A stretch of 62,306 bases of DNA, the filler included, from Sphacelaria rigidula (lineage: Eukaryota): NCBI GenBank assembly GCA_964200075.2. It is 3 parts of 3 records of this genome, joined end to end, with 100 filler letters (N's around TTAATTAATTAA, not from the genome) between each part and the next. Parts side by side here need not be neighbours in the genome. Positions count along the whole stretch, not along the records: positions 41,638 to 62,306 come from CAXNAA020000502.1; 2 more parts are not named here. One strand, written 5' to 3'. Shown here in pieces: positions 21,201 to 62,306 of this stretch. The position numbers were made by a program, and so were the translations under genes. The first letter of the stretch is position 1; each line of letters starts with the position of its first letter. The notes below the pieces were generated by a model. The model was not told the DNA's origin. It did no database searches and saw nothing but the letters and a program-made list of their open reading frames with translations.

Positions 21201-21347
21201 GTATACATGGGTTGAATGAAGGGAGAAAAAGCGCGCGAGTCATAGCTTTGTCCGCTTCGATCGAGGAGGTATATTTTGCCCTACGCAAAACATAAGCAGA
21301 CGTGGACGAACAAACACAACTGATGAGGGAGCCTCCAATCACATAGA

Positions 21348-26950: not shown

Positions 26951-27093
26951 CCCCCCCTCAACGCCAGTATAGCTTTTAACCCTTCACACTCCCCCTGAAC
27001 GCAAATACGTACTAGTTTCAAACACCCGCATCAGTACAACCGTCCCGGCACTCAAGGACGAAATAAGAACTCAACGCTACAACCAGGCTGTAG

Positions 27094-30000
27094 TCATATT
27101 TTGAATGTGCTGATCAACTTGACGAGGTGGCGGTGCCTGTGTTTGCTGAGGTACTTGATCCCTATGTCTACGAGTTGGTCTTCGGTCTTGACGTAACGGA
27201 TGTCGATCTTTCCCTCCTTAACTAATTCCTGAATGAAAAAGTACCGTAGAGCTACGTGCTTGACTCTCGAGCTATAAGTTCGGTTGCCTGCGACGTGGAG
27301 AGTTGAAGTGTTGTCAATGTAAACAGGAACGGAGTCGAAGCGTGTGCCAAATCCCATCTCCCGCATCATATTCGAGCAAAATATGCCTTCCTTCATGGTG
27401 AGTGCAGCGGCCACGAGTTCTGCTTCCGTCGTCGATTGCGCGGTGAGTCCTTGTAGTCCTACCTTAAAACTGATGGGGCCATTCGAGAGAAAGATAAGAT
27501 ATGATGATGTGGATTTCCCGTTGTCTGGGTTGATACCCCAGTTCGCATCTGAGAACGCCGTCAATTGGAAACCGCGCTGGTTGTAGGTTATGACCTGGTC
27601 TGTAGGGCCGGCCAAATATCGAAGTAAGTGTTTTGCAGCTGCCATATGCGCCTTCGACGGATTGGACATCGCCCGCGCTAGTTGATTCACAGCGTATTCA
27701 ATGTCGTAACGTGTCACGTGAGCGAGATACATCACACTGCCCGTAGTAGCCTGGAAACGCTTTTTGTCCTCCTCGTTCAAAGCTTTCTCCCTCGGCTGGC
27801 CCAGTGACAGTTCTTGTCCCACACCAGGAGTGTATGCTGGGTTGCAATTCGCCATCCCGTATCGTTCCAGGAGAGACTTGGTGTAACTTTTCTGGCTGAT
27901 GGTGACTGTCTTCCTAACGCGATCACGAACAACGTCCATTCCCAGCACTAGCGATACATCTCCCATGTCCGTCACCGAGAAACGTCCCATCAGTTTATGC
28001 TTGATCCTTCCCAGCACTTTGACATCTTTCTCAAGCAGTAGGACGTCATAGACGTATAAAGTCAAAATGTAGACGTCGCCGCTCTCTTGGTATATGTACA
28101 CGCAAGGGTCCGACTTGAGGCTCTTGAATCCAATCTCCGCCACGTGTGTGTCAACCGTGCCCCACCAGCAGTTTGGACTTTGACGGAGGCCACAGAGACT
28201 TTTGTGGAGCCGCATTACCATCGGAGTTCCATTGGCGTCAAACTCCTCGTATCCTGGCGCCATTTTGACTTAAACTTCTTCCTTGAGTTCGGCGTTCAGA
28301 AAGGCGGTGTTATAGTCCAATTGCCAACACTCCAAGTCATACTCCGCCGCTACAGCTAATACCATGCGGATGGTGTGGATCCTGCAGACCGGTGCGAAAG
28401 TGCTGCCACAGTAAACGCCAGGGGCTTGTCCCCAACCCTGCACGACGGCTCGGGCCTTGTGCGAGAAATCTGCTTTCTTCTTGTACACCCATCGGGACCC
28501 GATTAACCTGTGTCCAGTTGGGACGGAGCTTGATGGCACTAGAGTATACACGTTGTCCCTTCTTAGGCCATCCATCTCCACATCTGATGCCGCCTTCCTC
28601 TGTTCCTTTTCGGGGAGACTCGTGGCATCATTGAACGTGTTTGGGATTCTTTCGGTTTTCTCTCCCACTGGACAGCCGGAGAGGTTGGTAGCTGTGTAAG
28701 CATACTCCACGACTGATTCCGCCCCAAACGTCTGGTGCACGACATCTGGCAGGAGCGCATTGGTGTGTATTTGCAGTCGCCGTAGCGCGGAGAGCATTTT
28801 GTCGTCCACAGTGGCTGAAAGGTGCGCAGAAGCTGCGCCGTCGTTGTTGGTGTTGCGTTCCCTGAAGGAGCGCGCTGCAATGCCTGCGCGCGTCACGGCG
28901 AGAGTTACTTGATGGCGAGAGTGTCGAGAGCGGTTGAGCAGTGGTGATTCGGCTGGTGATGTGGACTGGCTAACGTCATCCCGAGAGGGGGGTGCAGTTT
29001 GTTCCAGCGGCGCACGGCTCTCCGGTGATACTGTTGGCGACGTCTCTTCACGAGGTGTGCCATCGTCGTGCAACATGTCCCGCTTGGTGATGGCGCTGAT
29101 TCTCTCCAGAAGCTCGGCCACCTGTGGATCGTTAGAGATCCCGCTGGCAGTGATATGATCAACGGAGGCGTGGGCTCGTTGAGCTAGTACGGAGGTGTGA
29201 TCGCGAAGATCACGGAAGAAGTCGTCGTCGGTGACGTAATTGTGGCCCTCTCTGTCGCTGGAGTCCCGGTCACCGAGTGAAAATGGGTGTATCCGAAGTT
29301 GTGGCTCTCCCGTCGGGGTATGGTGTGTCGGAGGCTCGATGAAGACGACGTTCCTGCTCTCAATGATACGTCGCGTGGCCAGGTTGTAAACTAGGTAGCC
29401 CTTACTGTCATTACTGTACCCAACTAGTCGTCCTTCAACTGCTTTGAGAGCAAGTTTCGGAGTATGGCGATCGATATGTACGAAAGCCCTGGCTCCGACG
29501 ACTCGAAAGTGTTTGAGATCCGGTTCTGTCTCCTTCAGCATCTTACGAGGCGACTACATGTCAAGCGCCGAATGCGGTGATCTGTTTGCAAGGTTGGCCG
29601 CTGTGAACATCAATTCCCCCCAGTGAAAAGTCGGCAAACCACTGCCAGCAAGCATGCACCGGACCATGGCTGCAAGCGTCCTTCCTACGCGTTCTGACAT
29701 GCCGATTTGTTGTGGTGTATTGGTGCTTGCAAACTCTAGCAATATGCCTGTCTGTCGGCAGTACGGCTTGCACTCGTTGCCAATTAACTCACCGCCTTTG
29801 TCTGCCCTTAGTTGTTCGACCCGAACACCGTCAGGAATGACCATTGACTGTACGTAGGACTGAAATGCATGAAGAGTGGCGTCCTTGGTAAATCTCTGTC
29901 CATCTAGAATACTCATCGGAGATCTTGCAGACGTACTTGAAGCCTCCCAGCGCCACCGGCATGATCGATCTCATCAAATCTGTCGTGACTAGTTGAAAAG

Positions 30001-32305
30001 CGCATTGCACTTTGTTGTTGGCTGTCTTCGGGTGGGCCAGTTGATGACTGTTCCCAACAGCACAAATATCATAGTCTGGAACGGCTCCACCGAAATCCAC
30101 CTCGTTGCTTCCGACGTTTTTGAGAAGATTCAAACCGTGGCTGTTCAAGTGTCCCATCCTCCGATTCCACAGCGTGGCGGCGTCTGCAGCTTGCATAGCC
30201 AGTCCAGATGCATCGTTGCCGCTGCTTAGTTCCAGAGAGAAGAAAGACAGGTCGCTCTCCAGTTCCTGGAGCGGAACGGTGAAGTTGTTTGTCTCGAGTC
30301 TTGGGTTGTTCATTTCGAAAATAGGTACAACGCCATTTCGTGTCGCTTGTTTGACGGAGAACAAGTTCCGCCCCAAGCTAGGCACGACCAAAGACGAAAT
30401 CTTAACCAGGTGTTTGACCCCTTCGCCGTCTTGGATGTGTCCGCGGAGCAGTCCTTTACCAATCCCTGCCAGTTTGTGCCCCCCTGCGGTGGTGATCGTA
30501 CGCGGGGTCGCCAGTTTCTGGTAGTTGTGGAGTTTATACCGTAGCCCCGGGATGAGGGTATCGTCGAAGTAATGTCCCGACGCACCACTGTCTACCATGA
30601 CACTGACATGGCTATTGCTACCCTCAGTCCACTTGTCAAGAGCGGGTCCTGCCGCGAGAGCCGTCCCATCATCAGCATCGGTGATTCCGCCAAACGTTTC
30701 AGCAGTGTCGTCGATGTTCGACATAGCCCGGGGGTATAATGAGTTCCCGAACATCAACCAGACGTAGTGGACTACGGCTATTATGGCTAGCGCGCGCACT
30801 AGTGGGGAAATTGTCTCCCTGATTCCCCGCAGTAGGTTGCGAGCTCTGCGAAGGAACCTCGGACCCGCGGCCTCCTCTCCGTCGGCCCCTTCGAAGGCGC
30901 CGAAGAGGCCGCTGCCGTCAAAAGAAGCAACGGATTTGTTCGTTGGAGCGAAAGGCCAAAGTTTGTCCGCTTGGAGATGGTTCGCCTTGGGCGTTTCTAG
31001 GGCATTAAAGGAGATGGCGGGAGGGTGTTCCCTTGTACCGGTGGCTGGTGGATACCCTAACCACTGTGCGAAATTGGCTGTCTGCTGGCTGCGCTGTTGC
31101 AAGGAATGGCCCCCTTCTTCGCTGTGGGTTGTTGTGACCTGTGGAAAGAGTACCACTTATCTACATTCCCATTGTTTCCCCCGTCCTGACCGTCTCCCCC
31201 TGTCAGTGCTCGGGTCGCACTTCGGGCGGGGCAATTTCTCCTAACTTGACCTTGCTTTCCGCAGTAGTAGCATATTACTTGATTTCTTTTACTGCCATCA
31301 TTCCGGCCACTACCCTGCATAGCAACCCCGCGGCCTGCGACCGAGTTGGTGGCGTCCTGTCGTGAAAGGTAGTCGGCATACGTGGTGCTGACTATGTATC
31401 TGAGGTCCGACAAAGTAAAATCGTGCCTCTCGCAGCTAGCAATGCGGACCCTATCGTACTCGGCAGGTAAGGCTCGAAGGATAATGTCCTCATATCGTTT
31501 GTCAGGTACGGGCTGCCCCATTTCCTCCAGGCGATCACGGTAGCCATCCATGACAAACAAAAATCTTCCGGATCATCCCCTGACTGCATCGTCGTTTTGT
31601 GGAGTTCATCATGGAATTCCCTGCGTGCCTCTTTTGTGTTGCCGTCAAATTTTCTCGCAGCGCTGCCCACGCTGTTTGGCCATCACCAAACTCGTCCTCC
31701 TGGGTTTTCCCCATGAAACGTCGCACGGTATTGTTCGCTGATTTTTCGGTGGTGAAAAATAAGATGCTAAACAGGTCATTGTTTTCGCGATTCCAAGCCA
31801 GTGAAGGTGCCGTATCACGGGTTGACGGTTCATCACCAATTACGGTGCGTGCGGGTCTCTGCCGCCCTTGCAGAACTTCTGCGGTCGCATTATGGTGGAG
31901 ACAGAGGATCACCCATACTTTGTCTTGAAACTCTCGGAAACTAGCCCTAACAACGTCTTCGTGAGATTGAGAGTAGAGCGCGGATTGAGAGTGGCTTCGA
32001 CCATTCGCTTTAACTTAGCCAATCTTTCATTCCGCGTGTGCTCTTCTTCGTCTTCATCACTACCGTGTGCTTACAGCTACACGTCGGTACCCTTCTCAGG
32101 AATATCAAGCGCCTCAGTGGCAAGCTACTACAGGAAGAATATCAGGCCTTGTGGAGGGGCATTTCGGAACTGAGACCATCCATTCACTGACCGACCGCTT
32201 TTCACTCTCAATCGTATCCTCTACTCTCAAGCTCACAAAATCATTGTTCCTTGTCTTCGCTATCAAATTCTGTACACAACTTAGGTACCGCACGAATACT
32301 CTCAT
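27094..32305 (-). pseudogene. Copia gag-pol polyprotein, frameshifted
   Basis: CYYCGKQGQVRRNC, VDSGASGHY, LWNRRMGHLN, LRADKGGE, WVYKKK, GLRQSP, YVYD (mutated YVDD), FSDANW, STTEAEL, KHVALRYFF. Confidence 0.9.
31950..32248. mobile_element. About 300-bp MITE, AACAACG-TIR family, inserted in copia gag
   Basis: About 45-bp imperfect TIRs; flanks CCCT/CCTT; removal restores EDKASFREFQDK. Confidence 0.8.
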
Positions 32306-33068
32306 TGTCCGCCATGATCATCCTCCTCGTCGCTTTGCTCCAACGTAACGAGTATAGTATAACGTGTTCCGATACCACCACACAATCGGCCTTGATCACC
32401 GCCGCTTGACTTGTCGAGGGAGGTCGCGAAAGAAATAATGCAGATGGGTCGAACCCAGACATGTCCCCCACCACATAAGCGCCCCCCCCGCAACGGCTTA
32501 ACTTGAGCGGCTCGAGAGGTGAAGATAGAAAGTCAGGGTACAAGATGTTACAAACACTGCGCACGGTTGTGCACTTCTAGAGTAGGCGCGGAGAAAAATT
32601 CATTCCGAGAAAGGATCCGACTACTACTGACTGTTACTGTTTCCGCAGGTCAGCCGTGGTGCTGCGCACGCTGTTGTCGTCTCCTCAAAGAATAGATCAC
32701 ACGCCCTACTCGGTTCAGGTTGTGGTACCCTGCTGTAGCGCCAGTCGAGAGTAGATGCGTGTCGTCACAGTTGCAGAGCTACTCCTGTTCACCTGCTGTT
32801 GTCCCGCTTTTTAAAAAATGATCACTTCGTACCGCAGCGATGCCTCCGTATTGCGATGATGCCAGGTGCGCACAAAGTAAGTGCCGTCTCCAATCGTAAC
32901 GCAGCGCACTGTTGTAGTGCCAGACACACACAGTGCCGTCTTACTTTGACTCAACTCACGTTGTTTTCCAGCAAAGATTTGTCCTTTTGCTGCTGCCCTT
33001 CCTTCCTTCCTTCCAAGGTCCAACGTCCGCTCCTTCAGCACAAACACGACGAATCGAGGCTCATAACC

Positions 33069-33400
33069 TGTTGGAGGATTCACTCGGAACCCCTTTGTCG
33101 TGGTCGCTAGAGTTGGCGCATTGGCGGTTAAGCCAAGCAAGCAGACAGGTTGCTTCGGAGTGTAGACAGAAGATAGTGTTCAAGGTGCCGCTTGAGGGCA
33201 AGACAATGAAAACAACCCACCGGGGTACATGGTCAAAGCGAAGAGTACTTCATGTATAACAGCTGCTATACCACATTATACGCCCCCACATCAGACCAAC
33301 CCTTCGTGAACGATACCTGCGATCCCAACACTACATATACATAAAGTCAATACGATACGAAGCGTTGAAGAGCATGGCTCCGCAGCCTCATTCTCTAACG
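33069..33400 (-). repeat. Copia 5' LTR
   Basis: Direct repeat of 26619-26950, with the PBS adjacent. Confidence 0.93.
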
Positions 33401-41637: not shown

Positions 41638-43415
41638 GGGGCCGCAGCTGGAAGCAGTTTGGCCCGCAGACGGAAGGAGACAACTCGAAGCGCACAGCAG
41701 TAGAGGACGCTACGTGGGCTGGAGGATGCACGAGTCAGGCAAGAGTCTCTCCGTGAAGTGTTTCTATCCTAGACGACATGGCTCGAGCGGCGGCAGCGCC
41801 GCTGGTGTTACGTGGGCCGCTAGACCCGCCAAAGTATGGCGAGGTCTGGACCGAGGAAGCATCAAGAGATATTTTGCGCCGCATATCTCGACTACATAAA
41901 GAGGTTGTACCTTGCAAATGCTCAAGGAGTTGTACGGCGTACTGGGGTGAGCATAGGTCAACTCACCCCTACATACGTTCATCGGTGCATTTAAGGCATG
42001 TACAAGGACCGCCGGGCTATGACCCCCGACGAATTGCTAGATGCTGTGAAGCAGCATGCCGGGTACACACCACAACCTGCGGCAAGCATGACACTGCGCG
42101 GGCTGCAGCAGACCCGCGTAGAGTTCTTACAATGCAGCAAAGCGGTGGAACATCCGGCAAGGGTAGAGCTATGATGGGTAATCCATCGATGGAGACGTTT
42201 TTTGCTGGAAACCTCACGGTGCAAGCCATGTACCGTGCGGAGGACAGGAGCTGGTTGCCAGGCCCGACCGAGTCGGTTTCCACAGCTTTGGTAGACGGGG
42301 TTTCGCCTCCGGAACTCAAGGCGAATGTTAGAAGCGCACTCACGTATGTTGACGGCTGGAAGAAGAATCCAACGGTAGGGTTCAACAAAATATTTGATGC
42401 CGCCGACCGCTGGAAGTTCATCGAGGCGCATGGCCGGCGCGACTCTGCGGCAAATGCAGGTGGCGCGCGCCGCAAACAACAACACAAAGCACAGTAACAC
42501 CAACAGCAACAGCAAAAGCGACAGAAACAGAAACAGCAGCCGTCTTCACGAGCGTCTTCCACTCGCGCGAGTTACGACAGCGACGACAACGGACCCCTGC
42601 TTAAGGATTGCCCCAAGCCTCCCGCTCAAGGCGCTGTTCAAGGAAATGCGCGAGGTTCATCAGGATCTCGCGGCGGTCGTAACGGTGGACGGGGCGGCGC
42701 CAACCGTGGACGCGGGCGCGGCGGCCGCGGCGATCGGCAGCGAGCGGTGGTTCCTCCGCTGCTGTTTCTTCCACTACGTCATCAGGTGGTGACTCTGGAT
42801 CTTCTGGTTCGTACGTGTCGGGGCGGACAGGGTACGGGGGAAATGCAAATACTCCGGTGGGGAGTGCTGGAGCGAATAGTTCGCAACCCCTCGGCCAGGC
42901 AGGATCCGTGTCTGGTGCATCTCCTACTTCTGCGACGGCTGTAACAGCGCCGTCTGCATATTCGGCGACGTGGTCTGGGTGAACCGCCGATTCTCAATTA
43001 TCGATGCCCAGTACTGGACCGCAGCCCTGGCATCAGGTGACTCTCGGTACCGACCAGGGCTCACCGGCAGGTGTGGTGCCTATCGACCACAATGTAGAGT
43101 GTTTACGCGCAGATCTCTCCTCACCTGGTTCCGTAGGTTCGTTCATGGCCCGCGTTATTGTGGATTCTGGGTCCGCGCTCACGCCGATGGGTGCGGTGCT
43201 GCTAGAACAAAAGTCTCCGCAGTTTGGCGGCGCTCAGCTGCAGATTCCGTTCGGAAATGGACCGCAAACGGCACAGACCGCCACGGGTGCTCCCGTGACG
43301 GTTACACACAAAACGGTGCCGATTGCTGTCAGCGTGCGTACACCGTGGGGGGCTGTGGAGTTGCAGCCCATCACGTTCGCTGTCATGCCCGGCAGGGACA
43401 ACGTGGTACACCTTT
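41638..43415 (+). mobile_element. Ty3/gypsy fragment A: gag, decayed knuckle, aspartic protease
   Basis: GPLDPPKYG, PPELKANV...GWKKNP, LLKDCPK, IVDSGS, RTPWGAVELQP; homologous to elements B-D. Confidence 0.75.
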
Positions 43416-46400
43416 GCCTATTGAAAATCGAAATTTCCTTGCTTAAACACTTTACACCTGTTACAATGAACGACTGCTTTCCAAGCAAACAATCCGTCAT
43501 TTCCGGACTTCCTCTGGGGTCTAATCCTAGCGCTGGGATTGTCTCAAATCCCATCTGACGGGGAGGATTCCAGCGCTTTCCGTCGCTGCATCAGATCCCG
43601 TTTGGGACCGTCAGAAGGGATATTCAAACTACAGCTGCCGCGGGTTCTAAATTCAAAAGAAACGGCTCGGAGTTTTCAAGCGCGTTGCACTACAGTAGAC
43701 TAAGTTTTGTTCAACAGCCCACCGCGAAACCGATTCTCAACACAGCCACGGCGGGGGTGGCCATACAAGGCGTGATAGCTGGTTCAGACTGGATGAAGCG
43801 CCTCGCATGGGCACTCCTGGCGAAACAACCCCAGGCGTGGGACTAACCCTTACCCACGTTGTGTGTGTCTGCAGCTTTATTGCGGGGCACCCATTTGATC
43901 CAACTGACCACTGCACTGTAGTGATACTGTACTCTGGTGATGGTGTATCTCAACAGACTGCTCAATGATGCTGCGTTTCGAAGGTCGTTGGCGTCTGCCG
44001 CCGCATTGGATCGTGTCGCTGACGGCGGTCCTCGCCGGCTCAACAGTATGAAGTCTTTCTCAAATACTCAACAAGAGGCGCTCGAAAACTCGAAGGCTAG
44101 TCCAAAGAAGTATGTTTTCAGCATGCTTTGTTACGTGTTCCGTAGCGCTCAGACGCAGGGGTTGCTCAAAAGATGCGGCAGAATGAATGACGGCGTCTTT
44201 TCTGTTGAACTGCTCACCATCATGCTTTCGCTGCCGTGCAGAACCTTCTGCATTAGGGGCACATGGTCGAAAGCGGTTGCGAATCCCGAGCCTTTTGAAC
44301 AATGTAAATGAAATTTCGATGGTCCGTTGAACCTGAAACATATGTTGAACATCAAATACGAATCCAGGCTGTCACCTCCTCTGCATACATAATATGTCAA
44401 GCATCCATGTTCATGCTCCAGGGTATCCAATGGCCCAACGTCATGTAACTCGTTCCCAAACCACTGTATCAAGATACAGCGTATCATGCACCTGCTCGTG
44501 TATTGGAGGTGGTGTACTCTTCAGCACCCCCGAAGCTCCACACCACTCAGAGTAGGAAGCGAGCTTGGCAAACAGGAGCTACCGACGATCACGTTTACGC
44601 TACCTTCCCGTCTGTTAGTGACACACGACCATGCAACGCCATGCTCCACAAAAGACACGGATAATTGGCACAGCCCTGAACATCGACAATGTGAAGTACA
44701 AAATCTAATCCAACTCGGTGAATTCAGTAGTTCATGCAATCGCCAGTCATGGCATAGTCACACACACAAAGCAAACGCGCCAAGCACAATACCATCTGAA
44801 TCAGAAGCGGTCGACAATATCATGGAATCTACATTCGGAGCTTGATACCGTATTTTGCCGTATCCTTCTACTTCGTCCCGACTCACGCCGCTCAGATGTT
44901 ACGAACTGCGGAGCTCCTTCAGAAAACGTTTCTAGCGGCTTCCACGACTTTTCATCCTGGCCAAAACGTAATTCACCCTACTCGTACATAGAATCCGTCT
45001 CCTGCCTCGTCTTCAGATACACCGAGGATAGTCGCTATCTCAACCCTCCTTGAGCAAAGGCATGCTGGAGCACCTTTTCCAGTCGCCCCCAGTTGACGGT
45101 GCCAGGGTAGAGAAGCTCGTGCGCGGTGCCCGCCAAAAACGTTACATACACGGTATGGCGTGCTGGCATGGTGCTCTCGGAAAGCGGTGTTCAATGCCTC
45201 CTGCACGGCAGGCATCAACCCCCTCCCAGTCATGACCATCGCGTCTTTCCTCCCGCAGCATGGCCTTCAAGGTACGAACAACCTCACGCACCATTCGCTC
45301 ACAAATACCACTAGACCATGGCGAGTTGGCCACCGCGAATCTTCGATCCAGCTTTAGCGTCTTCTCGAGCGCTCTCATCACGAGATTATTGAAATGCGAT
45401 GCAACATCGCTGACCCATCCTCCCGGCGGCCCCAGAATGTTTGCACCACGTTATTGGATACTTCACCGTCGTCGCTGCCGTACATGACCCCGCCGGCTCA
45501 AACCACACGAAGTTGCTCAGGTCGACCACCATCGCCGACACACACTTGGAACCATCCCTTTAATCTAATCCATGCTCTCCCAGGGGGCCACTCTCTCCAA
45601 CTCAGAGCAAATCAAAATGCGTCGCCTCCCTTGAGCGATCGATTACCCTGCACCGTCTTCCCAAGGTGGCGGGGAGCTTGCTTTCCCACCTTGTAGTCAC
45701 TCACGCGTCGGAAACCGCCCCTCTCGGACGTTACGACCGCCGCTCTCCCCCGCACTGCCTGCAAACTGCAGTACACGAGCCCGAGCGCCAGCGATGTGGC
45801 CATGCATCGCGCCAACCGCGCCATCCTGACCGGAGAGTATGGCCGCGGGCTAGCCTCAACCACCGCAGCACCAGGTTCGAACTTCACCTTTGAGGGCTCG
45901 ACACGAGCAGAGGCATCACCACGCAGCGCTCGACGAAGAACGTTCGCAGTGCTTCCTTCAAGATCGCAAAGCTAGCTCACGCCGCTCCCCGACATGCCGT
46001 TTCTCGCGGCGGCCTGCACCGTCTGCTCCAGCGCGACACCACGCTCAGCAAACTCCTGTTTCGGGGATATCCTCATCTCCGGACCTCTCGACACCAGCCG
46101 CTCGACCGAGGAACAGGCGGGCTCCTGCCGATCACCTGCCTGCTGTAACGCCTCGACCGGGGTATTGATACGCCGAAAATCTTTGGAATCAGGCGTGTCC
46201 ACGCCACGCTCCGAAGTGTTCACTGGCGTCTAAGCTGCTGTAAACGACGATGCCCGGCGCCTCCCAGCAAAGGACTCCCCATAGTTATTACATCATCTGT
46301 ACCCGGCGTGAGCGCATGTGAAGATGTGTCCAACACAACCAGTTTTCAGCTGGTGTGCAAAGCGGTTCGGACAACACAATTTTTCTGCTTCGCGTGCGCA

Positions 46401-46834
46401 CCGTTTCACCAGCCATCGATGTGACCACTCGAACATCCAGAGCCATAGCTTACAACGTCGCCGCTACACCCTCTGACATGGTTGAAATGCCGGATCCCGA
46501 GTCCAGAATGGCCGTGACCGGACAAACACTCTTTTCCCCTTCACTCGGTACAGAGAAGTCAGCGAGACGCCGCCTGCCCTTGTTATCCACAACCAGACCT
46601 ACAAGAAAACTCTGGCACCTCACCAGGTTCTAGCGTTCTCCACGCCTGTACTGTCAGATTTCCAGGCCGGGACTGTTTCCGCCGGCGTGTTCCGCTGCAC
46701 GCCACCAGTGGAAACGACAGGTTCGGGCGGCATCATCTCTTCAACGCTGGGAGTACCCTCTCCATCGCCTGAAATCACAACCCTTGCAGGGGCGGGATCC
46801 TTGCCCCCTACGCAAGGCACCTGTCCTGGATACT

Positions 46835-46880
46835 GCGACTGCTGCTGCGACTGCTGCTGCTGCTGCTGCTGCTGCTGCAG
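46835..46880. repeat. (CTG)n tract, poly-Q in gag of element B
   Basis: Seen directly; an equivalent shorter tract is in element C near 59440. Confidence 0.85.
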
Positions 46881-47587
46881 CGTCTCGCTGGCCTTCGTCT
46901 GCCCACCTGCAGGGTGTTCTAGAGTAGCAGCTTGGCCTAGCTTCTTACGATCCCTCCGGGATGGCCCGTATCTCCACATTCGAAACAAGCCACATAGCTC
47001 GGATCCGGTTCCCGAGATTTTCCGGAGCCGGCAGCCCCACTGCCCGTGGTCGTCGTCTCTCCACTCGACAGTTGTCGCTCGGATCCAGAGGGCCCGCTGC
47101 CGCTCTTCTGTTCCAGCTGCGGCGGGTGACGGCGCTACTTTTCAACCGCTTCGACCGTCTTCCACCCGTCCGCTGATTCCCAAGCCGTGTCATGCAGCAG
47201 CCCGGGGTTTGCTTTCCATCCCCCCGCGCCTTTCATGCGAAGCATGTTTTCAACGTTGGTCCCAAGTTCTGGGGGAGTCATCCCGGCGAGCAATTCCCGC
47301 GTAATAATTTGAGCGGGTCCTGCTTTGAAGGTGCGAACGTCGCGGAACGCGCGTGCAACGCTCGCGATCTCGGCAGAATACTCTTCGAGGGCACACCACT
47401 GCCCTTCGATTCTACCAACGGTGGTCGATCCGTTGCATGCGGCCAACGTCCTTTGCACGCCGGCTGCAGCGACCGAACGATCGATCGCTGTATCATCCCA
47501 ACACTTTGCTTGTCGAGAGCCGATCCGTCAAAAATGGTCTGGGACAGACATGTGCGAATATGCTTTGAAGCTCCATGACAGTGAAGG

Positions 47588-47821
47588 ATACTTTATACGA
47601 TAGCCCCCCCCCAAAAACGTGCACGATTCCGGTGGGCAAAATCTTGACGTGAATCGAAATGGGAAAGGCCGAGCTCATCGAGAAGCTGGGAATTCCCACG
47701 CTTGGGTTNNNNNNNNNNTCTAGGCGCTTCATGCAGCCTGAACGCGAACATCAGGCGCTGTATGGCCATTTTTTCGTGACACTTTTAGCTGGTTTTGGTG
47801 GGGGGCTATCGTAGAAAGGGT
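47588..47821. mobile_element. MITE with GATAGCCCCCC TIR (6-bp TSD family), inserted in gag of element B
   Basis: TIR CTTT.TACGATAGCCCCCC; flanks TGAAGG/CGAAGA; contains a 10-N gap. Confidence 0.65.
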
Positions 47822-49509
47822 CGAAGAGGGCGTCCTGCACACTGACCGTCCCTTGCTGCGGTTTTCTAGAGCTTCCTTGTCCTTTTATGTGTTGGAAAAA
47901 TGTAGACGATGTAGTCTATATTCATTATGTTTGAATGAAGTTGTTGAAACAAAAGATAGCGGTACAATCTGTTGCGTTTCAACGAAACAACGAACCACGT
48001 AAGACCGTTTCATTCGTATCCTTTTCACGGGGAATATCTCTTTTGTGTTGATTTATAGCATACCTGTGTGAATGACGTTTCAGGCAGGATACTGCTACAG
48101 TAGGCGTGTTGCCATGATTTGTCAATGAAAGGTACTCTAGCAGAGTATTTAGGCCACGTAAGCTACAGGATATCTTGTGTGCAACTTTGCAGTTAATCTA
48201 AGCTAGCAAGGCTACCGCGTCAGCAATAGCGAGGTTGAATCGAATGATACGATTAGACCTTACGTACGTGTAGAGTGTTGGATTCTTCTTCCAGGATTGA
48301 GCATGGTTGTAAGCGATGGTCTATCACCCTTGCAATTACTCTCCCAAGCTTACCAAGCTTACCCAGCTCTTCTTCATTTCCTCAGCACTCTGCTTTCAAA
48401 AGAGGCTGCTTTCATTTTGTTCGGCCGAAGTGAAGAGCCCCGAACACCATTTTTGTCTTTGGACTTTCTGTCTGCTGCAGAAGCAAGTGGTTTTGACTAC
48501 CACTGTGCAACCTCTGCTAACGTACTGTTTCTGCGACGGTAGTCGGTCTGTTTCGAGAACAGTGCCAAATGCCACCAGCCACAAATATTTCCAACATTAT
48601 GTACTTGTGGAAGAAACTTCTGGACGCATTCTCACTACAAAATCGCCCGCACTCTGGTGCTTTGGGTGATTCTCCGACCGTCAACTCAGGTAGACGAAAG
48701 CATCACCTCATCGCCTGCATCGCTTCCGCCACCTCTCCTGCGCGCCGCCGTCCTCTCAGAATGCCTCTCACGTGGCGCTTGCAGCCAACGTAGTCGTCCC
48801 TCTGTTGTTCAGCGCGCATCCTCGCTGTGTGCGGATCGTATACCTTGTATACGACGGGCCAGAGATTCTCCGCAGCTGAAGAGAACTTCATCCAGAAGAC
48901 AGCATGTTTCCTGCCGGAATCAGAACAAACCTGCAGAACTTCTCGAAGGACTTCCCTCACTACGGTTCGAAGATTTCAAGACAGACGCGCTTCACAAACA
49001 CACAGTCTTCGTTATCGGAAGTGACCAGGAGCAGCACCTCCTATATGCATACATCCTACATCAAGCATCCTGTGTCAAAATCCATAGTCATGCTCCAGAG
49101 TATCTAGTGACCCAATCTCATGCAACTCGTACTCAAACTGCTTTTATCGACAGACAGCGTATCGCGCACAGCACGGCGGTCGCATGATCGGGCGAAGCTG
49201 GCCAGAATTCAACGGACCGCCTCTTGACGAAGATATAAGCGCTGCAGGCGGGCGGGCGATTGATCTCTTGCCACCCAGGGGGTAGGTAAAAACCATATTC
49301 CAAGACCCATTGCCCCCCTCGACCGTTTTCTCCCCTTGCGGGCCATTTTGTATTCATCATGTTTCCCTGCTGAAACAAGGGTGCCCAGGAACAAATCCCA
49401 GACCCTGTGCCCCCTTTTCGAATCCTGGATTTTTTTCGGGGCGGGGGGTGAAAATAAAATGGTATAAAAAAAAACAGTATCAAACTTTGTTCCAACTCGC
49501 TGTTGGCTC

Positions 49510-51110: not shown

Positions 51111-53113
51111 GTTCCCTGGGCAAAGTATGGCGCTGGCAGACCCCGAAACGGCGCCGCAGGCGCCAATTTTGATGAAAACGCGTTCTGCGCACGCGTAGGG
51201 CAGTCGGGGCTGTCAGCCCCGCTAAAGATCCGTCCGAATATCGACGTTTACACTCAAATCAAGTTATAAAGCCCGGGGAGGTTCTCATCGACCGAGTGTT
51301 GAACACTACAGTACTGCATATAACAACGTTTTCGTGAGATTGAGAATTGTGACGGATTGACGCCGTTACGTTGAGTTGGCAGTGATGATCTGGATAATGA
51401 GCGTTGGTAGTGATGATCTGGACAATGACCGGGGACACTCGGCTGATAGCCTGGCGTGTCTAGGAGGCTGTGCCCACGATGGCACTCCTGAATAATGGAA
51501 TGTTGTAAAGGCCGACAACTGAAACTGAGGCCAGTGAGACTGGGGAGCCCCTCAACAGCAGTGATCCAGCAGTTCTTCCACTGGCTGGCCTCACAATATC
51601 GATATTAGTGCTAGGATTAGTGCTAGAATCCCGCTGGAAAGGATTTTGGTAGGAGTCTGGGAGCTGTGGAAACCTGATACACCACGGACGCGTGGAGAGG
51701 GTTCCAGCTGAGGCAGCTGCAGAAAGGCGGCTGGCCTGTGATTGATGCAGACTGGAGACTTGCTGAAGCTGCGTGCAGCGGGAGTTTGGAGGCTCCTACG
51801 ACTGTGTGGTGCGGCGACGAGGCAAGGAAGTGTGCAATTGGCGAAAGTCCGCTGGCCTGTGAAAGTTCGCAGGTAGCCGGTTGCACCTACGCGTGTGGCG
51901 ACCGGTTCGTGTACCACGCCCAGCGTGACGCCCGTGGTTATGCGGGAAGAGTTGCGACCCTCCCAATACGGGGATAGGTACTCAGAGAGTGCATCTCACA
52001 CTTTTTACACAAAGTACTTTACGTACAAGAAGCGTGTGAAGCACGCTAACGCAGGGGGTGCTGGCGCCTGCTGACTCGCTGGTCGGAGATGCGCCAAATT
52101 GTTGGTCTGCTCGCTGGGGGTCATACCCGCCGGCGGTGCCGTTTGAACCTGCCGGGGCGTCCTCGCCTGCTGCGCAGCCGTGGCGTCAAATGGGATGAGC
52201 GGCGCATCGGTCGGCAAACAAAGGGCTAGTGGAGTCTGCGCACAACTACGTTCCTGCGGAGTTGTGTCTCCCAAATCAACGGGAGCGTGGGGCTATTGCG
52301 GTTCGGGCTGAGTGAGATTCTGGCGCCCACTTGACGGGTCATGTGGGTCTGTTGGTACAGATTGTAGAGTTGTTGGAGCGTCTTCTTCCGGGTGTGCCGC
52401 TGCGCATTCCGTTTTGGCTCGGGGCGCAGCAGGCCGTCACCGCGTCCGGTCAGCATGTTTACGACACAGAGCGTACTGTTCCGCTGCAGCTGACTTTCAC
52501 GACTTTCTGGGGGCCGGCGCAGTTGCCTCCGATCTCGTTTGGGATCATGCCGGGGTGGGATGGCGTCATTCTTCTGGGGTTGCCGATGCTTCAGGACATT
52601 GGAGTCAACGACCAGCGGTTGTGGGACTCCATGAAGACGCGGATGTCTCCGCCTGGTCCACGCTTGGAGACGCCCGCCGTTTTGGGCAGTCGTCGCGTGA
52701 GCTTGTCGGTGGATGCTTTTCAGGGGGATGGAGGGCAGGTGACCGAGGAGCGGGATGCGGCGGTGGAACGCTCGGTAGAGCGCGGCCCGGAGATATGTAT
52801 TGACCCGGCGGAAGAGGAGTCCGCTCTGAAGGTCGCGCTGGAGGAGAGGGTGACGGATGCTGTGGCGAAAAGCCTCGGCGTCTCAAAAGCGGAGCGCCTG
52901 CGCGGCATATTGCATTGCCGCGTCAACGCGTTTCGTCGTGCGCTGCGGGGTGATCCCCGTGCGCGCGTGGAGCCCATGCGTGTTCACCTAAAACCTGGGG
53001 CGTCCGCGGCGAAGACGGAGCGGCGGTGGTTCGATCCAGTGAAGTCGACTTGGTTGGCGTTGTGCATGGCGGCTCTTTTGGCGCTCGGGTTGGTGTTACG
53101 GAATTTGCAGGCG

Positions 53114-53361
53114 ACCAATGCCGAGATAGCCCCCCCACAAAAAGTGCACCGGAGACCGTCCGGCAAACCGGCTGCGATTCCACTTTTGGGCTCGTTTGCA
53201 GCAGTGTTGCCCACATGAAAAGCGTGTAGCAGTCCGGAATCAGCTATAACGCCCAAATGAGTCGCGTCGTGCGGCACGAAACCAGTTCTAACGGCATTTA
53301 TTATCATCGCCTCCGTGCACTTTTTTTGGCCGGTTCGGGGGGGGGCTATCTCGGTAGCAGT
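53114..53361. mobile_element. MITE, 248 bp, 6-bp TSD family
   Basis: TIR CCGAGATAGCCCCCCC; exact TSD CAGGCG at 53108-53113 and 53362-53367. Confidence 0.85.
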
Positions 53362-53444
53362 CAGGCGGGGTGATCCAGTCCAGATATGGCGTTTCCGAGG
53401 AAGGCTGCATCGCGGACGGAGGGCAGGCAGTTCAAAATACCTCA

Positions 53445-53597
53445 GGATCGACGTTTTCCAAAACCAATCGGGTCATTCCCTGCAGGTACCACGCCCCTGA
53501 CCCCAACCCCAACACTAACCCTAACCCCAACCCTAACCATAGGGGTGTTCAAATGCCGATGCGGTCCTCTAAGCACGCGGTCCTCTCACGCATTACA
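53445..53597 (+). repeat. Dispersed element with internal telomeric hexamers, family 2
   Basis: Both flanks of the CCCTAA/CCCCAA tract align with 61623-61800. Confidence 0.75.
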
Positions 53598-56418
53598 ATG
53601 CGGGCGTGCAATATTTCGAGTCGGACGTTGGTACTGCTATCTTGGACAGTGAAGGTCTGTTCCGTGTGCACGTGCGTGGCCGAAACGTTTTGTGGATTGA
53701 GAGTTCTGACAAGCAGTTGCAGGTACGTGTGATGAGTTTCGCGCACATGCGCGACGCCGGCCACCGTGGTGTGGCTGCGACGCTCGTGCAATTGCAAGAG
53801 TTTTGTGTCTGGCAGGAGATAGAAACTCATGTGCGCGAATTCGTCCGCCAGGGCCTTCACTGTGCTGACTCGAGGTGGACCGTTGTTGTTCCCCGCCCGC
53901 TCGGCGAAACGGTCCATGGGACAACGCAGAATGAAGTCGTTCATCTTGACTTCTTGCACGTGGGCGAGAGTGTCCCGCTAGCTTCCCAAGGTTTGTCGGA
54001 GGATACTGGGTTTTGATACATTTTGGTAATCATGGATTTGAGCAACTTTGTGGCTCTGGAACTAGTAGCAGTGCATACTGCTGAATCGACGGCTGCATCT
54101 TTGCTGAATTGGTGCAAACCTTTGGGGGTGCCGCGTGTGGTGGTGAGTGACACCGCCACGCATTGCAAGGATGCGATCTTGGCCCCATTGCGAGAGGCTT
54201 TGCGCGTTGATCACCAGCTTGCGGAAGCGTATTTTCCGTGGCCTAACGGCACGTGCGAACGCATGGTCAAGGGAGTAGTTCGTGCCCTTCGCTCCATTCT
54301 TTTCGAGCAGCGCAGAGCGGTTTCGGAATGGGTGGACGTGTTGCCTGCGGTGCAATGGATGCTTAATACAGCGTATCGTCGTCGTTACGATAGTACGGCG
54401 TACCATGTGATGTTTGGTCGTGCCCCTCGAACTTCTTTCTCGGTGCTGGCGTCTTCGTCGGCGGGGGAATGGAAATGTGGTGTTCTGGACGATGTTTAAA
54501 TGAAGAGTGCATTGCAAGGAGTCTTGGACTTGCAAGAACGTTTCCACGTCCAAGTGCAGGAACCTGTTGCCGTTGAACGTGCGCGTAGATGTGAAGGGGC
54601 CCTCGTCGAGGCTGGAAGTGTCGAAGCTTGAGGTAGGCGACTATGTCTTGTATGCACACGTGCGTCGTCCGGGTGTTACGCCCAAGTTGATGGCGACGTG
54701 GACTGGTCCATGGAGAGTGGTTGGTGCTCACCGTCCGCACGTGCTTGAGATTCAAAACAGTGTTTCGGGTCGTGTTCAGATCGCCCATGTGGCTCGTTTG
54801 CGTGTTTACGCAGACTCGCAGCTTAATGTTACGGGTGGCGTTAACGACGTGTTCCCGCATGCTTTCAATCGGGGGCTTAATGTTACGGGTGGCTGGTATT
54901 GTCCGAGTGGCAGAAGCAGGTGATCGTTCGTTGATCGTGTTGGTCGACTGGGTTGGTTTCGAAGTTGAGGAGCGGACGTGGGGGCCTTTCAAGGATATGT
55001 TTGGGGCCGCTCGGGAATTTCTTACGAAGGAGTTGCGCAAATTGCGCGTGACTCGTGCCGTTGCTGCTCGCGTTTTGAATGAGTTTGGTATTCAGTTGTG
55101 ACGTACTCATCGTTTTGGCGTCTTTTATGTGTCAAGCTTGTTGATCGACTTTCGTTTAACGTGCTTCGGGGGTGCTGTGACGAATTAACGCCGTTACGTT
55201 GAGTTGGTAGTGATGATCTGGATAATGACCGTTTGTAGTGATGATCTGGACAATGACCGGGGACACTCGGCTGATAGCCTGGCGTGTCTAGGAGGCTGTG
55301 CCCACGAGGGCACTCCTGAATAATGGAATGGTGTGAAGGCTGACAACTTAAACTGAGGCCAGTGAGACTGGGGAGTCCCTCCACAGCGGTGGTCCAGCAG
55401 TTCTTCCACTGGCTGGCGTCACAGAGTTGAGTGGTGACTGAGAGTGGCTTTGATAATTCGCTGTAACTTAGCCAATTTTCTATTCCGTGTGTGCTTTTCT
55501 TTGCCTCCATCACTGCTGTGTGCTTACAGCTCCACGCCGATGTCCTACTCAGGGATATCTCAGTGGCAAGCTACTACGGAAGGCGTACTGGCCCTCGTGG
55601 AGGGGCATTCCGGAACTGAAACGATCTATTCACTAGTTGACCACCTTTCACTCTCTATCGTATCCTCTACTGTTAACCTCACGAAAACACTGGTACATCT
55701 GGGAGCGACGCATGATGTTCGTTGATGAAACATTCGTGTTGATAGTGAAGCTTGAATTCTTCGGACAACTTCGGAGCCAAGTAAGGTCAAGTTATACTCA
55801 TGGGCTTCGGCAATACGCTACACATCACACTTCCACGACAAGAACAAGACCAGGCAAATACCACAATGCTCTGAAATGCTTGCTAAATCAAGCTAAACGC
55901 ATCTGTCTGCACCGCCGCCAATTTGCGTCCACTGTACGCTGCATCTTGTGGCGGCAGATAGCGCCAACAATCAAGGGCGCTACGTCACCCAAGTCGCCCC
56001 TGAAGAGCTATTCATCAAGTGTTTCTTCATGAGAAAAAAACCCAATAAATCCCACGACCGCCGGAGGGGAGGGGGCGGGGGGGACGGGGGTACATCGGGT
56101 CTTGGATCGTGTTTTGGGCATCCTTGGCTGAAAAACACTGTTATTGGTTGTGGATGATTTGGACGAGTTTACACAGCTTATTTCAGTGGCTCTTATCCAT
56201 TGCATGCAACAAGATCCAACGCACTGCGGTCGTCCGGTCTAGTGATGCATTGCAAAGCATGACTAGATCTGTTATTATAGTACGACTCATAAAGCCTTTC
56301 TGGACTCAAAACAAGATCACAATATTGCTCCAAGGGCTTCTTCCCTCACTAGGGCCTGGAGACTTCAAGACAGTTGTTATTCATAACCACACAGCCTTCG
56401 TTACCGGAAGCAACCACA

Positions 56419-59400
56419 TGCGTGAAGCATGTGATGTTCAAATCCATATAGTCTGCCAATCAGACCCGCAAGTCCGTCAACCAATAGAAAACGCCTACAG
56501 CAGATTGTTCCACTTGTGTATTATCATGGACCTGCTCGTACGTGTACTGGAGGTGGACTACTCTACAGCACCCCCAAAACTCCACACCACTCGAAGTAAA
56601 AAGCGAGTTTGACATTCAGTAGCCGAAAAACACATTCATGCTACCGTTGTCCGCCTGTTGGTGACACATGACCATGCTATGTCATGTGCACAAAGAAAAT
56701 GATCATTCGCAAAACGCTGAACAAGGACACTTGAACACAGCGTCTCAATCGAATGTAGTGAAGTCAATCATTCATTCACCGGCAATTTCGAGTCGTGGAA
56801 CGCTCACACAAAGCAAACGCGCCGAGGATAATACCATTTCAAACCGTAGCATTCGATCATACCATGCACTCAAAGCTTGATACCGTATTTTGCCTACAAC
56901 CGTGCCCGCACCTTTTGACCCAGTTTCAACTGACGCAGCTCAGAACAAATATGCGGTGCTCCTTCCAGAAAAATGGGCACATCATCCACATTCTCCGGTA
57001 TTCAGATGCGAAACACCATCTATGCGCTTATCCAAACACATGACAAGCCATCAAAGATGTACCACAGTAAAAGATTACTGTACTCGCGCACGATTTCTTG
57101 TATCGTCAACCTTTGGAAATACTCACGTTATACTTGTTCACATACAAGCCTACGCATTTCGCAGTTTTCGCTCATTTTCACGCCAGCAGCAGCAATCACC
57201 ATCTCCTACAGTCAGTTTTTGCCAACCACACAAAGATGATTCCACTTTTTGCGCGAACAATAATATACCAGCTTTATTTCATTCAGCACACAGCAGTGTA
57301 TTGGAAACTGCTGTACTCTGACTCTTCATCAGACACCAAGCACATCAGTCACACCTGCATGCTCATATTTCACTCAGTAGCTTCTTTGCAGAAACCACCA
57401 TTTACCATGCGTGCCAACCAGCGCAACACAACAGACAAGTCCAGGAACCACATCACCACCACCTACGATCGTCCACAAAACGATTCAGGTATACAAGTCA
57501 CAATGTGTTTCCTCATTCTCAACAAGCAATTCCACTAGTACTTTCTCCTTAACATCACCCAACCCGGCGCTCACCGCAACATCGAGCACCTCAGGCAATG
57601 CCTGCCTTGTAATTCTCCTGCGCTCCTCCTGAGAAACAGCAGCTCTCCGGCTACAATTTTGTCCACACCGTAGAGTAGCATTTCCATTCCAACAGTCGCT
57701 CCTCGCATCATAGATGCAGCTACAGCCCTCACAGCTGTCCCGAAAACCAGTGTGCAATGCCCACTGCACGGCAAGTACCAAACCCACCCAGGCGTTGGCA
57801 TCGCGCCTTCCTCTCTGCATTATGACCTTGAAGGTACAAACAATGTCACGCACCATTCGCTCACATTCATAATGTGACAGCCGCGAGTTGGCCACCATGA
57901 ATCTGTGATCCATCAGCACCTTCTTGAGCACTCTCACCACACGATTCTCATATTGCGATACCGTATCGCTGACCCATACCTCCTGCGGCCCCAGCGCTTT
58001 GCACCATGTCAACAGATGCTTCACCGTCGTTGCCACTGGACAAGACTCCGCGGGCTCCAACCGCACGAAGTCGCCCGGGTCATCCATCCTTACCAATATG
58101 TACTTGAACCGATCTCCTTTGTCCAAGCCATTTTCTCTCAGCGGACCACCCTTGCCAACACTGAGAAAATTGAAATGAAAAACCTTCCCTGGGCGACCAC
58201 CATGCACCACCTCCTTGTGGTGACGAGAAACTTTCTCCCCCGCCTTGTATGCACTCATCCAGCGAAAACAGGACTTCTTGGGCATTGCAATCGCCGCTCT
58301 CGCCCACACTACCTGCAACCTGCAGCACACGAGCCCGAGCGCCACCAATGTTGCGATGCAGCGTGCCAACCACGCCATCCTGACCGGAAAGTACGCCCTC
58401 GGCCGAGCCTTTGCTTCCACAGCAGCAGGTTTGAATTTTACCTTCAAGGGCTCGACGTGATCAGGCGGATAACCATGCATCACTCGCCTGAAAATGCTCG
58501 CTCTGTTCCGTGCAGGCTCACGAATCTGGCTCACGTCGCTATCCGATATGCCGTTCCCCGCGGCGGCTTGTACCGCCTGCTCCGGCGCAACATCAAGCTC
58601 AGCAAGCTCTTGTTCCGGGAATATGCTCATCGCCGGACTTCTCGACAACAACCGCTCGACTGAGGAATAAACGGGCTACGCCCGACCTCCTTGTATCTGT
58701 GAAGCGTTCACCGCGGTACTGACACGCCGACAGTCCGTAAAATCAGGCGTGTTTACACCTCGTACCGAAGTGTTTCTTGCATGTGCACAGGCACCTAAGC
58801 TACTGTACACGACAATGCGCAGCGCCTCCAGTGTTGGGCTCCCCATGATGAACACATCATCTGTACCCCGCATGACCGCATATGAACATGGGTCCAGCAC
58901 AACCGGTCCCCAGCTGGTGTGTAAAGCGGTTCGGACAGGGCAAGTGTTCTGCTTCACGCGCTCAACATTGACGTTAGCCAGTTTCACCAGCTGTTCATTA
59001 ACCATCGGTGTGACCACTCGAACATCTGGAACCATAGCTTGCAACTTCGCCGCTACACCCACTGTCATGGTCGTAATTACAGATCCCGAGTCTAAAAGGC
59101 CTTGACCGGACAAACATCCTTTGCCCCTGCACTCGGGACAGACAAGTCGGCAAGACACCACCTTTCCTTGCTATATACTTGCAGACCCTCAGATTGAAAA
59201 CCTGACAGCTCATCCGCTTTGAGCGATTTCCATGCTGGCACCGCCTCAGATTTCGAACCCGGGAAAGAGTGCGATGAGATGGTCTGCTGCACGCCACCAG
59301 TAGAAACGACCGGTTCTGGTGGAAACGTCGTCCCCCCGCTGGGAGGACTTTGTCCATCGGCTGAAAAGACAGCCCTCGTAGGGGCGGGACTCGTGCCCCC

Positions 59401-60846
59401 TCCGCGAGGCACCTGTCCAGGGCCCTGCAACAGCTGCTATTGTTGCTGCTGCGTGTCGCCGGCCTTCGACTGCCCCCCTGTAGTATGTTGTGGAGCAGCA
59501 GCTTGGCTTTGCTGCTTACAATCCTTCACAAAGTGGCCCTTGTCTCCACATGTGAAACAACCTGCATAGCTTGGGCCCGGTTTCCGACATCTCCCGGAAC
59601 TGGCAGTCTCACTGCCAGCGGTCGCCGTTTTCCCACCATTCGGTTCGTGCTTGGATCCGGAGGTCCCCCTGCCGCCCTTTTGTTTCAGCTGCGGCTGCTG
59701 ACGGCGCTGCTTATCCGCCGCTTCCACCGTCTTCCATGCCTCCGCTGCTTCCCGAGCCGTGTTAAACACAAGCCTAGGGTCCTCCTTCCACCCCCTCTTC
59801 ACGTTCAACATGTTGAGGACTATAGTTTCGAATTCTGGGGGATCAGTTCATTCAACATATCCCGAGTTATGATTTGAGCGGGTCCTGGTTTGAAATCTGC
59901 ATCATCGCGGAACGCACGCTCAGCGCTAGTATTCTCCGCAAAGCGTTCCTCCAGGGCACCCCACTGTCCTTCTACTCTTCCCATTGCAGTTTGCTCGTTG
60001 CGGGCCACCAACGCTTTTCGCACTCCAGCAGCAGCAACTGAAGGATGAAACTCTTCATCTTCCCAAAATTTCGCGTGTCGGCCTAGTGCCTCCTTGACAT
60101 CATCTTTGTCAAGCACGGATCCGTCAAATATCGCGCGTGACAAACACGCACGGATGTGCTTCGGCACCAGTTCAGTAACAGTCAGTAAGACGGCCTGCAT
60201 ACTACGTCCGTTGTTGTTCATTTCGACCGCCTCTTCATACTCGACGTATTTCTGATCAAACGTCGGGACGCATGTTCGCTAAAATGCCGTCCGTACTCTG
60301 GGGCTTTCAGCGGTCCTGCAGGCATAAGCTGAGTAAACTTGAACCTCACCTCTTCGCCTGTGTCGCCATCACCCACTTTCTTGCGCGTTGCCATAGCTGC
60401 ACGCAACACTTCCAGCCAATCTAGCCGTCTCTCCGTTGTCTGTAAGCTCCCTCACTTTACAGAGTTCACACTCGTGTGTCCAAAGTCTGATATACTTTCT
60501 CCGCAGCTGCCCACAGCTGAAAAACCTCTTCCAGAAACGAGCGGGTTCCTTTTAATAAACGTTCATCACAGAGCCCTCCTGGACTCAGAACAAGATCACA
60601 AGATAGCTCCAAGCGCCTCCTCTCTCACTAGGGCCTGGAGACTTCAAGACAGTTGTTATTCATGAACACACAGCCTTCGTTATCGGAAGTAACCACATGC
60701 GTGAAGCATGTGATGTTCGAATCCACATAGTTTGCCAATCAGACCCGCAAGTCCGTCAACCAAAACAAAAACCCTACAGCAGATTGTTCCACTTGTGTAT
60801 TATCATGGACCTGCTCGTACGTGTACTGGAGGTGGACTACTCTACA
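56419..60846 (-). mobile_element. Ty3/gypsy element C (gag-CCHC-PR-IN, RT/RH deleted in frame)
   Basis: 149-bp LTRs at 56419-56567 and 60698-60846 (about 7 mismatches); PPT GGGGGTGC; PBS-like TGGTTACTTCCG; CFTCGDKGHFVKDC; LLDSGS; ORF 57485-58651. Confidence 0.9.
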
Positions 60847-61622: not shown

Positions 61623-61800
61623 GGATCGACGTTTTTCAAGACCGCTCGACGTTTTTCAAGACCGCTCGGGCCAGTCCCTGCAGGGACTGCGCCCCTGACC
61701 CTAACGCTAACCCTAACCCTAACCCTAACCCTGACCCTGACCGTGGGGGTGTTTAAAGTCTGACGCGGTCCAAAAAGCACGCGGTCCGCTCACGCAATAC
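61623..61800 (+). repeat. Dispersed element with internal (CCCTAA)n, family 2
   Basis: About 8 telomeric or variant hexamers at 61693-61742; flanks match 53445-53597; internal 21-bp duplication. Confidence 0.78.
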
Positions 61801-62306
61801 GAGTCTCGCCTGCCGCAACAGCTTCACTGAGTTCGAGTAACTCTACCCTGACTGGGGGCAGGTATATTGCCCCTGTTGGTAAACTCGTGACTTCTGGCGA
61901 GAAAAATGTATTGTTGTATTATCGAGACCTTGGTCCGCAGAGACGGGCCGGGAAAGGGGAGTGAGCACGGTGGGCGAGCCCGTATCATCTACAACCAATA
62001 AACTCTAAAAACCAAAGAACCAAAGACAAGATCCGTAAACGGTCCGTAACCTCAGCAACGTTCTACATGGTTCTAGCAACGGAACCCGGACCATGCACTT
62101 CCTTGCGTACCACAAAAAACTTCGGGTTGTTTCCGATACCACAAATACCATGCTCGGACTATAGCAGTACCCACAAAGAGTATTGCTACATAGGCAACAG
62201 AAAGGACCGCGACCGTTCTTCGCAATTCTCAAATATGTGGTAGCTCAGCAACCTATAGATCGACAGTTCCGTTATTCAGACCGTCCAATCAGATGTCGTA
62301 TACAAC

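Follow-up and report, generated by a model that had tools for sequence, protein, structure and literature searches.

Element C of the brown alga Sphacelaria rigidula most probably belongs to a non-autonomous Gag-protease gypsy lineage that was founded by one deletion, is copied by an RT-bearing partner and renews its ends by template switching. The copy studied lies on the minus strand of the window (the whole stretch of DNA analysed, 62,306 nucleotides) at 60846-56288 and is 4,559 bp long, with a 280-bp LTR pair. The 5' LTR (60567..60846; 280 bp, TG...TA-type ends, partner-type sequence) is followed by the primer-binding-site slot (60554..60567), by gag with a linker (59170..60394; ATG at 60394, CCHC knuckle) and by an aspartic protease (58800..59160, bounds approximate; DSG at ~59092-59084). 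A PR-RT linker and RT N-terminal stub (58247..58675) run up to S-A-Y, where the partner has S-D-Y. The deletion junction (58241..58256; TAC joined to AAG at 58247/58246) leads into an integrase core remnant (57738..58246) that has Asn at the first catalytic Asp position (58171-58169). A foreign insert (56970..57737) takes the place of the integrase C-terminus and contains the stop of the frame (57487-57485). The polypurine tract (PPT; 56568..56585), identical in the partner family P, precedes the 3' LTR (56288..56567), which differs from the 5' LTR by a K2P distance of 0.080. The flanks AGCC and AGTC form a 4-bp target duplication with one mismatch. The surviving parts keep the gypsy domain order gag-PR-RT-RH-IN, which Pfam recognizes on the frames of P and of Q, an RT-bearing relative more distant than P. 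LTR retrotransposons usually, though not always, end in TG...CA and have a tRNA primer site; in C the ends are of the TG...TA type, and the slot holds the palindrome AATAAACGTTTATT with two changes and no TGG tRNA site.

The fusion frame (58675-57485, minus strand) comprises 396 open codons, or 388 counted from a TTG at 58651. It was aligned to the RT-bearing long frame of locus L105, in which Pfam RVT_1, RT_RNaseH, Integrase_H2C2 and rve are all present. Residues 1-145 match positions 86-230 of the reference at 58%, covering the PR-RT linker and the beginning of RT, and the KAGE..QWAL block falls on the integrase core at ~756-925. What separates these blocks in L105, namely RT palm, RNase H and H2C2, is missing. 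The two-block alignment confirms the first-pass annotation, which had read here a 388-aa ORF fusing the N-terminal part of RT in frame to the integrase core, without YxDD, RNase H or H2C2. Its account of the ends of the ORF does not hold, since the PR-RT linker comes before RT, and from 57737 on foreign DNA takes the place of integrase for the last ~84 codons. Pfam found no real match in the fusion frame or in the database protein P0002. The named relatives carry the labels Sphacelaria rigidula and Scytosiphon; gypsy proteins of oomycetes are more distant. Three runs guessed to be RNA cover 30 of 30 bins and yield contigs across the junction; they are not counted as expression evidence.

Several features of the ORF are private to the window copy. 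The stop that bounds it (58678-58676) is a sense codon in 17/17 other family copies read there, and the frameshifts near 60256 (gag) and 59096 (protease) are likewise private. At the level of the family there is a single frame, from gag to a stop common to all 15 copies read there. The foreign insert, down to ~56970, is family-wide, matches neither P nor element B, and resembles other dispersed repeats at 70-77%. A search for its donor was negative, the best 40 matches all being family-like; contig C15760, which carries a related piece at 82%, was rejected as the source. The two ends of this contig (L111, G000:C15760), 1,919 bases each, repeat one another in inverted orientation at 99.8%, which is probably a fold-back of the assembly.

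The junction is widely dispersed. With a 251-nt junction probe, 40/40 scored places, drawn from 159 candidates, were covered at 91-100%. A 24-nt junction pattern (≤2 mismatches) matched 59 places on 59 different contigs, its undeleted counterpart 20 and the reversed controls 0. Twenty of the 39 other probe places were fetched, and all 20 are colinear with C with an identical junction position. In seven two-LTR copies the target duplication is exact in four, has one mismatch in one (the window copy), is absent in one and is unreadable in one; their LTR pairs differ by K2P 0.048-0.108. Three pairs with a truncated LTR were left out of the K2P values for C and P. An essential gene is therefore absent from many dispersed copies with a common lesion, as in a non-autonomous family, and the 59 junction places, paired LTRs and target duplications bear out the earlier proposal that the family amplified without RT. 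The RT-integrase fusion also occurs in a 617-aa database protein. Among 122 database proteins the junction occurs only in P0001 and P0002; the gaps of four others differ and may be artefacts of the gene models.

Element B (44250..49200, bounds approximate; minus strand) is an old, decayed member of the deletion lineage. It is a singleton, its best other genome match being 73-81%, and is 72% alike to C. Its junction, earlier placed at about 45690, is at 45693/45692, and its breakpoint, set against the RT-bearing relative, is the same as that of the 20/20 fetched C copies. The in-frame deletion of ~1,575 nt takes out RT palm, RNase H and H2C2; measured against P it is 1,572-1,578 nt in the three of eight copies without a net frameshift and 1,546-1,578 nt overall. 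At the breakpoint, GAT TAC of RT is joined to the AAG that follows GAT TCC behind H2C2, with five of six letters alike, so that the similarity suspected earlier at the breakpoint was right in kind. A tree of the remnant on either side of the deletion groups B with C (100/99), apart from the RT-bearing P and Q, and an AU test rejects a forced P+C grouping (p=0.006); the grouping of B with C is weaker in an integrase-only tree (93/89, AU p=0.10). With a protein probe, some 70 of 150 scored places, diverged ones included, proved to span the junction, and the twelve that were fetched all carry it. In a larger tree, for which six young C and six P copies were selected to limit its size, B, 13 older copies (the 12 fetched and L022) and the six young copies form one clade (100/98). 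Because B, C and the older copies share one breakpoint and form one clade, the deletion arose once, as the first-pass annotation had supposed.

The RT-bearing family P (~5.97 kb; 20 loci fetched) has LTRs 91% like those of C, a value equal to the identity within the family, and shares with C the primer-slot palindrome, the polypurine tract and the 4-bp type of target duplication. P was absent from the 20 top-ranking RT_RNaseH loci and surfaced in a search with a short motif of RT. The target duplication is exact in two of three P copies, and their LTR K2P distances of 0.018-0.086 overlap the range of C. In LTR, primer site, PPT and age, P is the matching autonomous partner that had been suggested as worth seeking. 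Unbroken pol was found in none of four P copies scanned, so that P is no more than a candidate for present-day activity. By probe count the deleted lineage exceeds its partner ~3 to 1.

C and P are joined as a mosaic. Near-fixed differences between them number 0 over reference positions 0-1829 and from 5700 on, and ~270 in between; the tracts without differences are the LTR, leader, gag and protease start, and the 3' LTR. In a gag tree C and P interleave, with at least three changes forced by well-supported branches. For a per-copy painting of 24 young copies we used 220 sites at which P and the older stratum differ. Switch points lie at reference positions ~1190-1270, 1440, 1680, 1745, 1785, 1870-1910 and 5460-5680, in the knuckle-linker, the protease and the PPT edge, and several are common to multiple copies. 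In 16 of 18 readable copies the 3' switch coincides with the border between PPT and LTR, and in L017 the 3' part is entirely P-type. Leader-gag identity to P is 70-77% in older copies and 88-92% in young ones; the older copies and B have no P-type tracts, and every young copy has them. In the window copy gag is P-type save for an old-lineage tract at ~59650-59410, and a switch from P-type to old-lineage sequence lies near the protease start. C thus carries an LTR acquired by recombination with the partner on an interior that remains distinct, which is LTR swapping. The earlier picture of an RT-less family missed this recombination, by which LTR, leader, gag and part of the protease became a P-type patchwork.

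The same junction occurs in a second chassis. Family E (L163-L170, for example L169:2322-6383; 4.06 kb, 248-bp LTRs) has it in 8/8 fetched loci, and 26 rows among 150 scored have the E shape. In E the RT-integrase junction of C is more decayed and is accompanied by pieces of the foreign insert of C, and in the integrase tree E nests with C (99/97). The LTR-gag-PR part of E is 69-80% like that of the RT-bearing clade S, the switch lying in the conserved RT start, and no closer RT-bearing family was found among 20 S loci fetched. The capsid part of E gag is deleted in frame, with the knuckle and protease motifs retained. The remnant carries a stop at one codon in 7/8 copies, and there or one codon before in 8/8. 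Protease omega between E and S is 0.21, unpolarised, the chosen outgroup having lain inside S. The single-family picture drawn earlier had missed this distant LTR-gag-PR chassis with the same scar. A Gag-PR stretch at 41639-43407 (plus strand) of the window resembles family E and elements of the S clade at 66-71%.

Element D (51348..55423, plus strand), which had been taken to show the undeleted form, belongs to a second RT-less family, separate from C and not its partner. Two other deletions, both in frame, have cost it the core of RT and the greater part of RNase H and leave the integrase whole; the corresponding short spacing is present in 16 of 19 other fetched loci. The integrase N-terminus and core of D are indistinguishable from those of the RT-bearing family R, with LTR-gag-PR only ~70% alike, and a search for a closer RT-bearing partner for the 5' half found none. 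D is a mosaic in the reverse sense and, as a true Gag-PR-IN family, a better candidate than C. It contains insertions at 53113-53362, which recurs in other loci at 86-89%, and at 53428-53598, which has telomere-like CCCTAA repeats and matches 61646-61813. Elsewhere in the window, a copia-type LTR element at 26619-33399 (minus strand; 331-bp LTRs at 93.7%, gag-pol decayed) holds an inserted repeat (31960-32249) that is also found at 21346-21643 and 55423-55692. Long open frames of 761 and 937 aa at 3798-6083 and 10028-12841 (plus strand) have no Pfam match.

Lineage changes were polarised on Q, with L022 and L109 left out. On the C branch the analysis covers protease, linker, RT stub and integrase; the gag of young copies is that of P. 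The integrase of the C lineage has 13 synonymous and 45 nonsynonymous changes (omega 0.83), for which neutrality is not rejected; omega is 0.80 for the linker and 0.49 for the RT stub, neither different from neutral. The C-half of the protease has four synonymous changes and none nonsynonymous (p=0.002). In the P lineage omega is 0.04-0.15 throughout, with 0.14 for integrase. Net pairwise dN for integrase is 0.158 on C versus 0.009 on P, and the pairwise branch omega for C integrase is 1.14, with a wide CI of 0.24-7.0. Net C-P omega for the protease is 0.05 (CI 0.01-0.15), a result that few C-branch changes (4 to 0) underlie; the DSG motif is present in 15/17 C copies. The position that we take to be the first catalytic Asp of integrase was placed by the rve match and the usual motif. 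This Asp is missing in 20/20 readable C copies and 8/8 E copies and present in 8/8 P copies, 4/5 Q copies and B. Of the DDE triad, C mostly keeps the second Asp and the Glu; B retains all three. Hence the protease of C stays under purifying selection. Judged by its sequence, the integrase remnant is a neutral, catalytically broken passenger, so that integrase, like RT, would be needed in trans. We infer that the C family supplies Gag and protease at most, with RT and integrase coming from elsewhere in trans. The dN/dS comparison among deleted copies proposed earlier thus splits the Gag-PR-IN label: it fits the constrained protease and does not fit the integrase, which behaves as neutral together with the linker and RT stub.

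Other readings of these data have to be weighed. Elements B and C share an orientation and are separated by 12.5 kb, as a local duplication or an assembly artefact might leave them. Their low mutual identity (72%), the dispersal of the junction over 59 contigs and its presence in the 617-aa database protein run against both origins and leave them a negligible probability. A Gag-PR-IN family that uses its own integrase and borrows only RT would account for the in-frame fusion, for a family frame open across the integrase core and for the persistence of the second Asp and Glu (and of all three residues in B). We consider it highly improbable, given that H2C2 is deleted, the first Asp is missing in every readable copy and the C-terminal third is foreign DNA, that integrase omega is 0.83 on C against 0.14 in P, and that family E has a common stop within the remnant. 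The mosaic itself could reflect ectopic gene conversion among genomic copies of the same family, with no co-packaged RNAs, as certain tracts have copy-specific edges and long C-P homology exists. Most switch points are common to several dispersed copies and were therefore inherited by transposition; the 3' switch mostly falls on the border between PPT and LTR, a place of template change in reverse transcription, and E joins sequences that are only ~70% alike. Gene conversion is on these grounds an unlikely rival, and template switching of co-packaged RNAs would be the simplest mechanism.

A further reading concerns the open frame. Selection may keep the dead pol remnant open as a frame, in favour of stable RNA or of packaging coupled to translation, and leave its amino acids free. 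No stop or frameshift is fixed across ~400 codons; 4.3 fixed stops would be expected under neutrality from the counted changes and 0 are observed (Poisson p ~0.014), which hints at some constraint on the remnant frame. Private changes per 396 codons at 0.039 divergence amount to 1.4 stops and 1.0 frameshift. The two deletions of D and the gag deletion of E are likewise in frame, although D and E require the frame for downstream domains; E has a fixed stop in its remnant, and ascertainment enters, the finding having been chosen for its open frame. We regard frame selection as possible, at somewhat less than even chances, and as an addition to the explanation by a partner-copied Gag-protease lineage, not a replacement for it.

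The primer slot of three gypsy clades holds a palindrome that begins on the last LTR base and is clade-specific: AATAAACGTTTATT in C, P and Q (exact in 15/28 copies), AATATCGATATT in D and R (51595-51606, plus strand, in the window) and AATATCTAGATATT in E and S, whose slot sequence is other than that of C. Beyond the window the palindromes were read at L105-L107, L132-L141 and L169-L190. By the criterion of TGG alone, no tRNA primer site is present in the slots of the three clades. Folds of five U5-primer regions have only a short palindrome hairpin in common, in four of them. Self-priming of the Tf1 type was considered and rejected, no stretch of the C LTR complementary to the primer slot being visible by eye. 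Fungal GalEa copia elements have a comparable palindrome of 10 nt at this place, according to PMC5445492. The slot palindromes suggest tRNA-free or dimer-linked priming.

Partnered non-autonomous LTR families, LTR swapping and Gag-only elements are known kinds, and C is a non-autonomous gypsy element with a swapping partner. In soybean, work by Du et al. in 2010 reportedly found that the non-autonomous SNRE family amplifies beside its autonomous partner SARE and swaps LTR sequence with it. The swap of C differs in spanning LTR, leader, gag and part of the protease with many recurrent switch points, in one branch of the lineage having moved to the chassis of another clade, and in its brown algal host. 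C is neither a LARD nor a TRIM, having one long family frame, unlike a LARD with its non-coding interior of >4 kb or the very short TRIM element. TR-GAG elements, in the passages of PMC4350172 that deal with them, are non-autonomous LTR elements under 4 kb with Gag only, without similarity to protease, RT or integrase and with no partner found. The useful coding content of C is likewise structural, but at 4,559 bp, with a selected protease, an RT stub, an integrase core and a known partner P, C departs from that description. BARE-2 of barley is described in the same source as part of a two-component system with complementation in trans, with Gag absent and pol kept; its lesion is the opposite of that of C. 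The Ectocarpus gypsy catalogue (PMC12477816, supplementary file 1) records TG...TA ends and integrase-only gypsy, and none of its 22 gypsy rows is labelled nonautonomous; those rows and the passages on gypsy elements consulted mention no partner recombination or selection test. Mosaic progeny of co-packaged defective and intact RNAs are described for the Ty1 and ONSEN clans in passages of PMC6894440, and template-switch hybrids for non-autonomous elements of sugar beet in PMC13570524. As these sources describe them, such exchanges involve close family members or non-coding modules, whereas the captures in the C lineage form a dated series, span 25-30% divergence and have a single inherited scar as their marker. 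In a literature search, mostly open-access and without Repbase, no account was found of a Gag-protease parasite whose history a single scar follows through serial captures and across clades.

We propose that the founding in-frame deletion was a jump of reverse transcriptase at GATTAC/GATTCC. The lineage likely still produces Gag and protease; C and P RNAs would be packaged together, and RT and integrase from P likely copy and insert C. LTRs and gag of C are likely renewed by template switching with P. Capture of the P LTR-leader-gag would maintain the compatibility of the parasite, because every young copy has P-type tracts and no old copy does. The same switching route may have carried the scar into the S-clade chassis of family E, and the fusion peptide would be a passenger, probably cleaved off or inert. 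The scar and foreign insert might instead be the real replicator, a cis-acting cassette, made up of an open frame and an RNA signal, with a packaging or stability advantage, which hops between autonomous gypsy clades by double template switches and borrows an active LTR, a palindromic tRNA-free primer site and gag. We think this rather unlikely; if true, family E would be a completed host jump into an S-clade chassis with a different primer-slot palindrome.

The parasite lineage, probably maintained by its partner, bears on how RT-less LTR elements survive beyond their partners, which has been argued mostly from single pairs. Here one scar tracks a lineage through time, from old copies without partner tracts to young independent captures, with one branch in another clade. 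It also gives a domain-by-domain readout of what the parasite itself supplies, the protease being kept and the RT stub and integrase free. Such copies are named 'unnamed proteins' in databases, and the in-frame fusion is a warning for annotation that it need not be a new enzyme. The lineage is also a system open to testing in a group, the brown algae, in which retroelements have had little study.
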